A stretch of DNA of 63,800 nt, counting the filler, from Klebsormidium nitens (lineage: Eukaryota > Plantae > Klebsormidiophyceae), in NCBI GenBank assembly GCA_000708835.1. It is 6 parts of 6 records of this genome, joined end to end, with 100 filler letters (N's around TTAATTAATTAA, not from the genome) between each part and the next. Parts side by side here need not be neighbours in the genome. Positions count along the whole stretch, not along the records: positions 61,430 to 63,800 come from DF238704.1; 5 more parts are not named here. One strand, written 5' to 3'. Positions 2,482 through 63,800 of the stretch are shown piece after piece; the first letter of the stretch is position 1, and every line of letters begins with the position of its first letter. The notes beneath the pieces are model-generated. The model saw only the letters and a list, made by a program, of their open reading frames with translations. It did no database searches and was not told where the DNA came from. The position numbers and the translations under genes were made by a program.

Positions 2482-5400
2482 TCACAACCTCGCTCGTCGA
2501 GCCAAGAGCTCTTCCACCTCCTCGCCACGTGGCAGCTCCACAGAGGGTTTGCTTTCGAAGCGGCCAAGCGCAAATCGATGTAAAGGAACTTCGGGGCACT
2601 TTCCGGTTGTAGCTAGATCGGCCATGATCTTCCCAATGAGGGGGCCAAACTTGAAGCCATGGCCTGTATGGAAAGGCCGTATAAGTGAGCGGCAACCTTC
2701 TTTTTAGAAGCTGATACGTCTTAGCGAACCGGTCAACCTGACAATTCGCCGACAAGAAGCTGCCGTTGTTGGGAAAGATAATCAGGACGAAGTGATATGG
2801 CCAACGGCATCATTCGTTGTCCGACAACAAATGTGGAAAATGGCACTGACAACACTGGTCAATGACGGTAGGTCAAATACGCTGTCACGCATGAGTCCCT
2901 GACGATGCATCCGCAACAGAAGTGTCCCCTTTCTCTTCAACGAGCTGCTTGAATCCCCGGGAGCATCAAGTGCGCATCAGAAAGCAGACGCTACGCACCG
3001 GAGAACCCAGCCGCAACCAGAATTGGGCCCTTTTGTTTCGGTTGGTCGGGCAGCGGCAGAAAGTCGAGGATGAAATCCTGCAACAGGTGTCAAAGATACT
3101 CAGTACAATACCAGGGCCTGGCCTCGACACTCTGCCGGCCAGTGTGGAGAAGGAAATAAAACCTTTGGATCTCGGATCTCACCCGTCGCCTCCTTTTCTC
3201 CACGCCTAACAGAGAAACACACAAACGCCTTACTCGGACGACAAATGCTAACATCACCCAGCGTCGTGAAAGACCTGCAGCCCTTGTCAACCACCAACGC
3301 ATTGACTCCACAGAATTAGTGAACAGGCCAGGAAACTCGGTTAAAATCATGAGATCATATCAGCTTTCCAGAGCTGACGTCATACGTCAGTTTTCGCTAA
3401 CATTGCTCGCCTCATGCGTCGTTCAAGATACACGCAACCCTCCGCAAACATAGAAAACCTAACAAGGTTACTTAACCAGATTCCCTAACAAAGAAACCTG
3501 ATCAGATAACGTAGTCCATCTTATCTGGTGTCTTGAGATCTACGCACCGCTTTGCGAGCGCAATTTTCAGCAGAAGCTTTGTTTGATGTAAAAAACGGCG
3601 AAAATAGGCGAACCTTGAACCTGAAGCCTGATACCACTGACCCTTAACTCGCGGAAATACATGCACCCCTCCGCCTGCTCCACTTTGCGTTTGTTTTCAA
3701 ACCTCACTGTGCCTACCCAGACCACAAAATGACACCTACTCAGCTGACGTCACTGACCTCGTCTGGCGTCATGGAGTACATGCACCCCTCCGCAAGCGCG
3801 GGCGCGTCCGTCCTCACAGCACTCCCAAACTTTTCCCTCAGAAACGGCACCACGTACTTGTGGACGTCCGCGAGGAGCGGCTCCGGCGCGCGGGCGTCCG
3901 GGTCGCAGAGCGGGCCCAGGTGGAAAGCGGCCTGCGGGACACAAGAAGATGACGTCAGCATAACGTCGTTCGCTCGAGTTGAACGCAGGAGAAGAAAGGA
4001 ATATGGCGTCGGGAGGTGCCGTCATGGCCCTCGGCTTCTTGCGGTGTCGGCCGGCCGAGGAGTGCAGGCGGGAGGGAAGCAATACGACGACAGCACTGGA
4101 GAGAGCCAGTGAGCTCGTGGCACGACGGCAGCCATGCAGGTTGCTAACAACCCTGCTGCCCGGGTCTGGCTGACGTCAGGACGAGATACCAGGAAAACGG
4201 CCCGCTGACTTCACTCGACTTTTGGATCCGCAGATTCGGCTGAGTCTGACCATAAGATGCGCTCAGCAACATGGGCAAAGCCTTCTACTCTCGTCCAACG
4301 CAGTGGGTCCACTGCCTAAACGATTGAGTGGGTTGCCTCTTTGACTCCAATAAAAGTCAAAGACAGCTCACAAACGGCCAAAGCGGCCCAAACGACACCT
4401 CAACTTTTCCGGTTGGACAGGGCCCACAATCTCCACGGTCGCTCACAGAACGTTGAGCTTATGAAATTGCCAACTAGATGGGCGAGCTCCCTTAGGAGGC
4501 GCGGACGGGGTGCACACTGACAGCTAGGCAGACGGGATTACCTTCAGGAGGCCGGGAAACTCGAGGCACGGCATGCCGTAGATGAGCGCCGGCTGCTCGT
4601 AGTTGATGAAGACGGGGAAGCCCTTAGCGGCACTGAAGCCGTCCGTGCCAATAGTGCGCCAATAGGCGACCTGGAAAAGGGTAGGAAACGAGGTGACGTC
4701 AGATGGGACGTAAAGCTTGACGACCGGGTCAGCAGTAGAAGGGACACATTCCCACTGGTTCACGAAGTTTGATTTCCAGGAAACAGATTGCGTTGCCAAC
4801 CTGCCTTCGAAAAGATGAAATGGCGACAGCCAACCTGAATTGCAGGAAGACAGACTGTCTTTCCCAATCCCCGCAGAAGCCGGAATGGCGGAATCGCAAT
4901 AGCGGGGGTTCTTGGCGAACCTACCAAATAGAGACCATGCGCGGATAAGCACCCCAAGAAGCAGGACGCTTTACAGGGGGGAAAGGCCCAGAACAGGAGC
5001 GTCAATCTACTTGGGAACAGTTGAACGAGTCTAACTCCTGGAAAAGCAGAGACAGACAGCGCTGCTTTTTCTCACAAAAGGGCGTCTTTCCAAGAGCAGG
5101 AAAGGACATCAAGACTTACAAATCAGCGGGACGAGAAGCGAGAGTGGAGACCGATAAGAACATAAAGGGGACCCGAAGGGAAGGTCCGCAGGGAGTAGAT
5201 GGTAAGAAGGGAATCGGAAAGACGAAGGAAGAAAGAGAATCGGAGAAGTACGCACAGTCGTATGAAGGGGCTCGACCGGCACCTCAACCCCGGCGATCTT
5301 TTTGAAAAGCGACTTGCTCCATGCGCCTGTAGTTGAAAGGGAACGCCGTTAGCGGTTTCTGCAGAAGACCAAAGGCTCAGATAGGGGCATCCAGGACAGA

Positions 5401-60056: not shown

Positions 60057-61329
60057 TCACCCTTTCCCCTTGGGGTTCTTAACCCGCTTCTCGTTCTCCG
60101 CAAACTTTACCTGCTTGTTGGACCTTTTCGCATGGGCCACCGCAGCTTGCGCTTTTGTCTTCTTCTTGGGCGCTTCCTCTTCCGAGTCCCCGTCTCCATC
60201 CGATCCCGTCCTTCTCTTTGCATTCAGCCTGGCGGACTTCTTGCCATCCCCGTAGTCAACCAGAGCAAGCTCCTCCGGACGCCCAACAGCCCCAGCTGCC
60301 CCCTTCTCTCCTTTCACAGCGGCTTTCTTCTTCTTCTTCTGCATGGGCTTCACTGGCGCTCCTTCTCCTTTCTGCGCCGCCTGCGCCGCTTTGACCGCTT
60401 GCGCAGCCTTCACCATTGCTGCATCAGCCTCGCAGTCATCCGCGATGTGTCCGCTCTGAAGGCAGCGCCCACACTTCTTCTTCAGCGCAGCTCCCCCAAC
60501 CTTCCCTGCTTTCCTCAGCGGCGGACCCATCAGATCATCCAAGAGCGCGTTCACTTCCTGCTCTTCCGCACTTGCTCGCAGCTCAGCTTCTTCCCGGGGC
60601 GAGAGCGCACGTTTTGGGGGCAACCCAAGGGTTTGCTTGGACCCCCCTGCCCTTGCCGGGAGACCTACGGGGCTGCGAATGTCCACCTCCTTCTCCGCAC
60701 TCTTCGCTGGCCCATTCACCCCCTTCTTTGCTGTCCCGACGGCCTCAAGAGCAGGACCCCGACCCTCGCTTCTCCCCAACCCTTCTTTCTTATGCACAAG
60801 ACCACCTGCTTTCTGCACACTACCCTCCTGCGCGCTGCCCTCCTGCACGCTGCCCTCTAGTACATCGCCAATCAGGCCGCCCTCGTCGTCAGTTGCAAAG
60901 ACGACAGGCTTTTCCCCAGTGGTTACATCGGACGCCCCAGAACGCCTGACCGACTGCTTCGAGCGAACTCCGTCAACTCCCAGCGACGCTGCTCCAGGAC
61001 CAAGCTCTTTCGCCACGCTGCTGGTCCCGACTCCCAAAGACAGGCAGCGAGCTACCTTGCTTGCAGGAGACGGCAGACCTTGGTTCGCAGCCGCCTCAAG
61101 CATTCCCGCCGCTCTCCGTGCCGCGATGGCTGCCTGCTGTTTCTGCTTTCCGCCCTTCCCCTTTGGCACCTTGATGTCTTTGAAACGTCCATTGGCGGCG
61201 TGATCATAGACCGCATAGTCACGCAGAGCTTTCTTCGTCCTTTCTTGCGTGACTCCTGGCTCCTTCTGCCACTCAGGCAAGGCCATTAGGTTCCTGACAA
61301 CAATGTCCAATGTCAAACGGACTGGGGTG
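60057..61329 (-). CDS. Zinc-knuckle (CX2CX4HX4C) low-complexity protein fragment, 5' end in the gap
   Basis: An ORF of at least 419 codons containing CGRCLQSGHIADDC, with K/A/G-rich flanks. The end overlaps a donor-like GG|GTGAGT, so it may be spliced onward. Confidence 0.55.
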
Positions 61330-61429: not shown

Positions 61430-63800
61430 CAGGAGTTGCGGCCGCCGGCGCAGTCTTCGCGTACTTTGACGAGGTCTACGAGGTGCGCGGGGCTGAAACA
61501 AGGAGAGTGGGCCCGGTGCAGAAAACGAGAGCGGCCCTGGTCCCGCACGTTGTGGAAGTCGACGAGGCGGGCCGGCGCGCGCTACCCCCAGGCTGGAGGT
61601 ACACGGAAGGGGGGAACCGGGTGTTTCACGCGGGCGCCCTCAGTTTTGATGGACGGCACTGGCGCGGCGAAGAAGAGTGGGAGATCCAGGACAGGGCGGA
61701 GGCGCACATGGCGCTGGAGCTGCAGCGGGAGTGGCCGCAATGGGGCGACACGCTGCGCTTAATGGGGCAGTTGCAGAGACAGCGACCCCCACCGCCGCCG
61801 GACCAGGACGAGACTCTGCCGGCAGTGCAGGCTGGACGGCTCGGGGAAGAAGAACCCGGGTCGGATGGGGAGTACGAACCACCGCTGGGGGAGCCCTGGG
61901 GAGACTTGCCGGGGGCTTACATGGTGGGATTGCCGGAGGCAAACGAGCGCCGGCGCCCCCTGAGAGAACAGCTGAGGAAGATGGAACGGGACTGGGGCCA
62001 ACAGTGGGCAGGGATAGGACCGGAGCGGCTGCCGGTGCTGACGCAGTTTGGGAGCCGGCAGATCACGGTCCTCAGCCTCTTCGCTGGAATTGGTGCGGAG
62101 CTCGAGGGACTACTAAGGGCGGGGGAAAGTATCTCCAAGTTCCTTTATGTGCAGATAGACCCTGTTGCCCGCAAAGTCATGGAGCACCGCGTGAGATGCT
62201 TGCATCACCGCTTTCCGGAGGGGTTGCCCACGAGTGCGTTTGAGGGGTTTCTGACGGCGCTGCCAAGGACGTGCGAGACGTGGGGGACCGAGAGCTGAAC
62301 CGGTACGGGAAGATACACCTAGTGACGGTGTCCTCTCCCTGCCAGGGGCTTTCACGAGCCAACCATCAAGCGAAGGGGCTGGAGGACCCGCGGTCGGCGC
62401 TGATTCTCGAGGCGTGGCGCGTCATCTCCCACATCGCCAAGCGCCAGCAAGTGCCACCCGGTTTCATCTTCGAGATGGTGGACGCGGCAGATCACCAGAG
62501 CCCGGCGGCGCGGTGGGCGTTTGAGCTGATGGGGCGGGTCAGTGTGCTGCGGAGGGCCCGGACGCTGGGTGCGGATAGACGCGGCGAAAGTGGGGTCGCC
62601 GGCGCACAGGGTGAGAGTCTTCGGGACCAACTTGGCGCCCCCAGAAGAGCTGCAGGCGCGGTACAGAGACTTCCAGCGGGAGTGGGTCAACGACAAGCGG
62701 GAGGCGCAGGACGTCCTGGACACCGGGCGGATAGTTCAGGTGGCGCGAGCCAACGACGTGGAAGTTGGCCGCTACCACCCGATGAACGTCGCCGGCGAGC
62801 CCCTGCGGATCTTCCTCACGTTAGTAGCCACCCCGGGGTCGTATGCCTGGCGCCTGCACTCAAAAGACGTCCCGGGGCCTGGAATGGTCTACGACAAAAA
62901 CTTGAGAGAATGACAAGAGCCCAACGCCGGCGAGCGGGAGCGCATCATGGGGTTGCTGAGGGGCTCCAACGAGGCATGGGGGGTCAGCGAAGCAGACCGC
63001 CGGCGGCTGATTGGGGCGGCGATCGACGTGCGCGCGTACGCATGGCTCTGCAAGCAGATCATGCGGTGACGTGACGACGCCAATCACAACTAGGGGCGCG
63101 CGGGGGTCGCTGCGCCCCCGCAACAAGGATGTTCCGGGTCACCCGGAACAAAACCCAGGAGTGAACCAGCTGGCGGGCAATTGGAGCGTCAACCCGCAGC
63201 TGGGGGGGGGAGAGGATCCCAGGGGTGTGAAAAACCCAAGAAGAGCGAGGGGCCGGGGGGGCCCAGGGCGGAGATCGGAGAGTTTTTACCTACAGAAGGC
63301 GCCGGCGCAGAAGAGGAGGCGGTTGAGATCGAAGGGCTGCGCTCTCTCGCGCACGGCGGACAAGAGATAGGGCCTGAGTGGCCGGAAGCGGTGCCGGCGG
63401 CGGCGGTTGGTCCAAACCCCAAGGAGAAAGGTGCGGAGCGGTTCGGGAAGGGCGCGGAGGAGCCATTCGAGTAGGGAGCCGAGCAGATCTGGCCGGGGCT
63501 GAGCGAGGCGCAGAGAGAACGGGTTGTGGAGCTGCTCGAAGGGTTTCGGGAGATCTTCGCCTGGTCGATCTACGACCTCAGCGACACGGCAATAGAGGGG
63601 GTGGAGTTCGAAGTGGAGTTCACGGACGACAAGCCCATCTTCGCGCCCCGCCGGCCGTTCTCCCAGTACGAACACGAGCTGTTGAAGGCCTACTGCGAGG
63701 AACGGGAGGCGGCAAAGCTGATAACGAGGCTGAAGCTGCCATCTGGGGTGAAAGAGCCAAACTGCGCGCCGACGGTGATGCCACGGAAGAAGGACGCTGA
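61430..63800 (+). mobile_element. Ty3/Gypsy retrotransposon pol with an embedded C5 DNA cytosine methyltransferase domain upstream of RT; decayed copy truncated by the gap and window end
   Basis: DNMT motifs at about 62062-63070: I VLSLFAGIG, II YVQIDP, III DVRDV, IV SSPCQGLS, VI FIFEMV, VIII DAAKVGSPAHRVRVFGTN, IX EPNAGERERIMG, X RRRLIGAAID. Then the Gypsy pre-RT region ELLEGFREIFAWSIYDL...KPIFAPRRPFSQYE...APTVMPRKKD. Frameshifts at about 62266 (-1) and 62535 (+1); stops at 62911, 63067, 63091 and 63472. Confidence 0.88.

Follow-up and report, generated by a model that had tools for sequence, protein, structure and literature searches.

A conserved stop codon between a Dnmt3-type methyltransferase and reverse transcriptase, with predicted readthrough, in a clade of Klebsormidium Ty3/Gypsy elements

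The window analyzed here, 63,800 nt of Klebsormidium nitens DNA, consists of unrelated contigs strung together via N spacers with a TTAATTAATTAA linker, and sequence flanking positions 61430 to 63800 therefore provides no context for the element at that position. The interval is a piece of a Ty3/Gypsy element that encodes a Dnmt3-type enzyme of its own, a class reported by de Mendoza 2018. The following features were assigned:

61430..63800, plus strand: decayed Dnmt3-bearing Ty3/Gypsy element, internal fragment; one entire contig (2,371 nt, GC 0.65), bounds from the N/linker spacers
61432..62061, plus strand: ORF1, last part of the spacer that leads from protease to DNA methyltransferase (DNMT), from alignment to P0003, P0152 and P0015 5' of their DNMT
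62062..63090, plus strand: Dnmt3-type C5 cytosine methyltransferase domain, broken here, C-terminal end of ORF1 (PF00145, E 2e-5)
62152..62160, plus strand: motif II QID, private substitution (four of four runs have another base at 62152, at full depth, and read E)
62264..62266, plus strand: frameshift 1, copy-specific (absent from contigs of other copies)
62331..62345, plus strand: motif IV SSPCQ with the catalytic Pro-Cys (SPCQ in 14 of 14 clade rows)
62472..62480, plus strand: motif VI EMV, clade-fixed variant (clade rows: 13 of 14 EMV, one KMV, none ENV)
62538..62541, plus strand: frameshift 2, copy-specific (absent from contigs in three of four public runs)
62608..62616, plus strand: motif VIII RVR (translation, clade motif table)
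62911..62913, plus strand: premature stop, decay (sense codon in four of four public runs)
63013..63033, plus strand: motif X region GAAIDVR (clade motif table)
63067..63069, plus strand: premature stop, inferred decay (relatives have a sense residue in that column)
63091..63093, plus strand: in-frame TAG closing ORF1, conserved (L001 DNA, clade protein ends); predicted readthrough site
63094..63474, plus strand: Pro/Gly/acidic linker that lacks Met and continues the ORF1 frame (translation, frame test)
63100..63121, plus strand: predicted hairpin 1, GC stem of 8 pairs and loop of 6 nt, 6 nt 3' of the stop
63166..63203, plus strand: predicted hairpin 2, 10 pairs and then a G run, about 70 nt further on
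63472..63474, plus strand: premature stop, decay (sense codon in three of four runs; the fourth shows no difference)
63475..63800, plus strand: N-terminal start of a Gypsy reverse transcriptase (RT), cut by the contig end

The contig lacks termini, Gag, protease and the RT core. The protease motif of relatives maps further upstream than the ORF1 spacer, and at the other end the RVT_1 start projects about 14 residues beyond position 63800 when mapped on L001; an RVT_1 match was absent from all six translated pieces of the contig in the Pfam search. L001, the sole DNA relative obtained, is unbroken, with DNMT, TAG and RT-RNase H-integrase-PHD colinear, and the element order protease, RT, RNase H, integrase is present in both L001 and GAQ87975.1. 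The RT start of the contig shares 82% identity over 108 aa with P0181, which has RT-RNase H-integrase-PHD, and is 72-89% identical to the clade relatives L001 and GAQ87975.1, and 89% identical over the RT start to GAQ91872.1, the nearest named relatives being the K. nitens proteins GAQ91872.1, GAQ87975.1 and GAQ89454.1. A prior sequence-only reading had described a Ty3/Gypsy element carrying its own C5 methyltransferase, and the PF00145 match together with the identity to P0181 bears this out; the Gypsy pre-RT/RT start that it reported is present as the N-terminal part of RT, but no RT core is reached before the contig end.

Searches beyond these relatives returned little. A PDB sequence search with the RT start gave no match, the piece spanning motifs III to VI matched solely the contig's own gene model when used as homolog query, and no family member was found in viral and prokaryotic collections, where 20 viral loci were without RT or DNMT match. 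Two loci in those collections (L022, L023) show retroelement RT/integrase without DNMT within prokaryotic MAG contigs, probably eukaryotic contamination. Long repeats were found neither in the contig nor in L001, both of which are partial sequences. At its N-terminus, ORF1 of the clade has a long region without Pfam or Atlas match and without a recognised Gag domain; the Gag part is placed here by position and is referred to as Gag-like, and a zinc knuckle is present in the sister protein P0067. Past the integrase frame, the 3' part of L001 (4436-5774) holds a G-rich tract near 4466-4478; it also contains a perfect inverted repeat of 19 nt (4868-4886 / 5182-5200), and these features may belong to a 3' terminal repeat. 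Elsewhere in the window, a separate contig (53913-57763) has a minus-strand Prim-Pol and D5_N primase-helicase gene beside intronless ORFs without Pfam match and looks like a virus-derived or Polinton-like insertion, while another (60060-61328, minus strand) has a long ORF of low complexity that matches a zinc knuckle weakly (E 0.57) and is possibly the ORF1 of a different retroelement.

Within the methyltransferase, motifs I to X (I FAGIG, II QID, IV SSPCQ, VI EMV, VIII RVR, X GAAID) follow in unrearranged order, and the solved structures closest to the domain are DNMT3A/B. A motif table and tree were built from 105 rows with a near-complete domain, the contig copy included and fragments and the contig's own gene model excluded. 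In the midpoint-rooted tree, drawn without outgroup, the 14 EMV/KMV rows, all SPCQ, formed one clade (FastTree support 1.0). The Asn of the canonical motif VI, ENV, is thus lost throughout this clade, and the catalytic Cys, the Glu and both Arg of motif VIII are kept. The reading from sequence had singled out EMV as notable and asked whether it is fixed; the counts and the single clade in the phylogeny answer this for the family, and the four public runs show no difference at the EMV site among the differences listed. For the intact relative P0010 a fold was predicted with pLDDT 85 and pTM 0.85 (52-row alignment), which matches DNMT3A 6f57 with a Foldseek E of 3e-17 and a TM of 0.83 by target. 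Elsewhere in the table, WECQ stands in place of PCQ in 48 of the 105 rows, and some rows have EHV/EHL or ECV in motif VI.

In the contig itself the enzyme is split. Three-frame translation places the methyltransferase in three pieces, the PF00145 match being the middle one. The frame shifts near 62264 and again near 62538, and stop codons lie at 62911, 63067, 63091 and 63472. The full DNMT with intact Pro-Cys that had been reported therefore stands as regards SSPCQ but not as regards the domain, which frame changes and premature stops interrupt. Decay was called by aligning contigs from four public runs to 61430-63800; the 63067 stop was not among the 40 of 358 run differences listed, and that listing does not bear on the 63091 stop either. 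QID, also put forward as a notable variant, turned out to be private to the contig copy, since all four runs differ from it, and was rejected as a family variant; the other clade rows have EID, END or DND at motif II. Counted over 25 differences in the majority in at least one run, among 40 of 45 rows listed in a separate table of run differences, 15 of 18 DNMT differences among relatives were synonymous versus only one of seven private to the contig copy (six change the protein), indicating from these substitution counts that the DNMT of the relatives is under purifying selection. With two frameshifts and three decay stops, the contig copy is dead. In run X1, a single contig lacks 221 nt within 62123-62345, and the ends of this gap are non-canonical.

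The fourth stop, TAG at 63091-63093, behaves differently from the decay stops. In L001 the TAG (848-850) is followed in frame by 1,194 codons for the RT-RNase H-integrase-PHD part, and both DNA copies keep the same frame on either side of the stop. All 13 clade proteins reaching the DNMT end finish within three residues of the L001 stop; several of these are near-duplicates, leaving about nine distinct lineages. This count leaves out proteins that end or diverge earlier (P0006, P0189, P0173, P0008, P0013, P0016, P0122, P0015), as well as two gene models running past this point, P0001 (the contig's own) and GAQ87975.1 (3,109 aa, K. nitens). The latter two join DNMT to RT, GAQ87975.1 running through a shifted frame of the post-stop sequence; both drop motif X, probably through predicted introns spanning the stop, real splicing being the less likely reading. 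Among forms of 812 to 2,585 aa, the range searched, with longer fused forms beyond it, seven clade proteins were found, none with an RT. A further K. nitens protein, GAQ89454.1, begins with a shifted-frame reading of the element (score 83, against at most 47 in 2,000 shuffles). Its two initial codons would imply TGA-AR at the homologous stop position, assuming no indel. Judged by these alignments, the TAG is a feature of the clade and not decay, so that DNMT and RT lack one open frame even in unbroken relatives and form a single frame only via readthrough of the stop. The sequence-only reading had translated through this stop and placed the DNMT in one open frame with RT inside pol; conservation of the TAG in unbroken relatives contradicts this, and the stop most likely regulates expression. 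Sister ENV-type proteins (P0067, which is K. nitens GAQ93235.1, P0056, P0046 and P0099) likewise end directly after the DNMT, and by their protein ends the stop may predate the EMV change.

Downstream of the stop, the long acidic and Pro/Gly linker already noted between DNMT and RT is indeed present. The linkers of the two DNA copies (129 and 123 codons) are open in the ORF1 frame only; when shuffled they stay open in 155 and 208 of 5,000 cases, and the frame register is kept despite indels that leave a six-codon difference between copies. The first Met of the downstream frame lies inside RT, at aa 223 in L001 and aa 229 in the contig copy, and ORF2 starts called in databases are scattered at unrelated places. 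In the matching RT clade (support 1.0), 12 of 13 rows start after the DNMT.

The bases following the stop are conserved as well. Both DNA copies read TAG GGG, and their 140-nt post-stop regions fold with z scores of -2.9 and -2.7. Of 2,334 segments of 36 nt in the contig, the most stable begins at 63093; in the L001 coding region, with 4,399 such segments, the most stable begins 2 nt past the stop. Third-base identity between the two copies was 14 of 17 comparable codons post-stop versus 50 of 129 elsewhere (Fisher p 0.001), for a 120-nt region picked after the alignment had been seen and with two sequences only. The 18 pairs of the two hairpins show no compensatory change between these two sequences, with one one-sided change and stems otherwise invariant, whereas all six positions of the hairpin 1 loop differ; with two DNA copies and no covariation, the structure rests on folding energy and conservation. 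A pseudoknot based on this loop was considered and rejected, because the loop of the contig copy could pair downstream and that of L001 cannot, and no conserved pseudoknot was found in the two copies. In L001, post-stop bases 850-864 are a 15-nt near-perfect complement of an RT site 897 nt away (1762-1776), a match that may mark a long-range contact for readthrough or may be due to chance. According to the portions of PMC3159437 and PMC13517186 available, UAG-GGR with a 3' structure is a type III readthrough context, with 6-9% readthrough in murine leukemia virus (MuLV).

Taken together, these features suggest that the DNMT ends at a conserved in-frame stop and that RT-RNase H-integrase-PHD is likely made only by programmed readthrough, a reading that we consider well favored. 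The published picture, in which PMC5890265 (as far as its accessible text goes) puts DNMT and RT in a shared ORF, would make the 63091 stop one more decay mutation within a single pol frame, and the three other stops of the contig copy and the continuous Gag-protease-DNMT-RT-RNase H-integrase frame of related clades (P0018, P0160, P0162) are in its favor; the same stop in the otherwise unbroken L001 and at the 13 protein ends makes it very improbable. That databases call DNMT and RT as separate proteins could also reflect two nested insertions, yet L001 is colinear and unbroken with no repeat between the two, ORF1/ORF2 pairs come from equal-sized contigs (P0171/P0177, 15,330; P0005/P0179, 15,423), and DNMT and RT each form one clade, the two matching. 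The claim of the earlier reading that DNMT and RT are one element is upheld by this comparison, and we give nested insertion next to no credence. More weight, although it is still distinctly improbable, goes to a real stop beyond which RT is produced from an RNA that is spliced or has its own start site, or by initiation at a non-AUG codon 3' of the hairpins. Ogre elements, with their split of protease from RT, would be the model for this; the gene models GAQ87975.1 and P0001 link both parts via introns, and the conserved hairpins could act in splicing, initiation or packaging. However, past the DVRAY end of motif X no GT donor is common to both copies, the modelled introns would delete motif X, and no joint over the stop was seen in the four runs among the differences listed. 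The retained frame register across the indel-bearing linker also speaks against a separate RNA, as does, weakly, a contig of a run guessed to be RNA that covers 63013-63225 unspliced; none of the carrier runs listed is on record as RNA.

A different alternative accepts readthrough and assigns the EMV domain little or no catalytic activity; as a plentiful protein of the particle it would instead bind DNA or RNA or act as a decoy. The missing ENV Asn in every clade row points this way, as do, in what could be consulted of the two sources, the 10-fold lower rate of the N-to-A mutant of Dnmt3a (PMC4802922) and the lack of methylation by a KnitGypsy DNMT domain in yeast, which its authors call inconclusive and for which the excerpt does not state the clade tested (PMC5890265). 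Against it stand the retained Cys, Glu and motif VIII Arg, the confidently predicted DNMT3 fold, and the role of the Asn, which according to the same part of PMC4802922 positions the motif and is non-catalytic. Other motif VI variants also occur elsewhere, the EHV/EHL rows here and EQT or EET in fungal RID/Masc1 (PMC6709928, in part). We consider this alternative unlikely; going by its conserved residues, the EMV enzyme is probably active, perhaps slow.

Comparison with known systems was limited to the accessible portions of the sources cited. KnitGypsy-Dnmt3 (PMC5890265) is likewise a Klebsormidium Gypsy element with an intronless Dnmt3-type domain under purifying selection, which agrees with the earlier remark that the class is known from de Mendoza 2018; its DNMT is published as lying in the ORF of RT and RNase H, unlike the EMV clade, where an in-frame stop lies between. 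The published element type is also listed with a DIRS-like arrangement of repeats. The related one-frame clades (P0018, P0160, P0162) may be what PMC5890265 drew. In the literature searched, neither a stop nor readthrough is described for these elements, with the qualification that the figures and main supplement of PMC5890265 could show the stop or EMV; PMC12344493, PMC11244446 and bioRxiv 10.64898/2026.05.21.726589 likewise describe neither a stop nor readthrough in the parts available. MuLV gag-pol and the tombusvirid UAG-G sites share an in-frame UAG-GGR and a GC-rich 3' structure, predicted in our case, and MuLV also has a structural product above the stop and RT below it (PMC3159437, PMC13517186). 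The MuLV stop, however, follows Gag, whereas the stop here follows protease and methyltransferase, and the spacer to the structure is 8 nt in MuLV versus 6 nt here, where plain hairpins are predicted and no pseudoknot was found. Tj1, Tcry1 and Tosmo1-3 are LTR elements in which an in-frame gag|pol stop sets the Gag:Pol ratio, but with the protease below the stop and no captured enzyme above it (bioRxiv 10.1101/2022.12.06.519325). SymbioDIRS-Dnmt3, SymbioLINE-Dnmt and EpiLTRs are retroelements with captured cytosine methyltransferases (PMC5890265; bioRxiv 10.64898/2026.05.21.726589), in SymbioLINE also in an upstream ORF, but they belong to other retroelement classes or carry other DNMT families, and the text available reports no readthrough for them. 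DNMT-bearing Gypsy elements also occur beyond Klebsormidium: 35 of the 105 rows are ordered RT-RNase H-DNMT-integrase-PHD (e.g. KAF8056149.1 of the chlorophyte Scenedesmus sp. PABB004), a form on which our literature search found no paper in chlorophytes, and the Closterium entries GJP34393.1 and CAI5973665.1 are protease-DNMT or DNMT-RT proteins.

If the stop is read through as proposed, the GGG context and the hairpin behind it would likely stimulate readthrough; most ribosomes would halt, giving Gag-like-protease-DNMT as the main product, and a few percent would continue into the rare, full RT-bearing polyprotein. With ORF1 as main product and the RT polyprotein rare, particles would contain a large surplus of methyltransferase, at structural-protein levels and with many copies per RT, and the enzyme would likely methylate cytosines of newly made cDNA ahead of its insertion by the PHD-bearing integrase. 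Tentatively, and as a possibility rather than an expectation, the lineage may have put an active DNMT above a leaky stop such that enzyme at capsid level saturates its own cDNA with 5mC pre-integration, recoding setting the ratio of writer to RT and dose offsetting the slower EMV site.

The element class is known; new here is a clade in which EMV is fixed and a conserved stop, with a predicted hairpin behind it, separates DNMT from RT. The conserved stop shows why gene models of such elements contain introns that are probably false, and the readthrough site, if true, would lie at an unusual place, downstream of protease and of an enzyme captured from the host. The reason for which retrotransposons retain a silencing enzyme is an open question in the field. 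In the published model, each RT is assumed to come with one DNMT in a single polyprotein, whereas the intervening stop predicts a many-fold excess of DNMT, and such an excess would change what the domain can be for.
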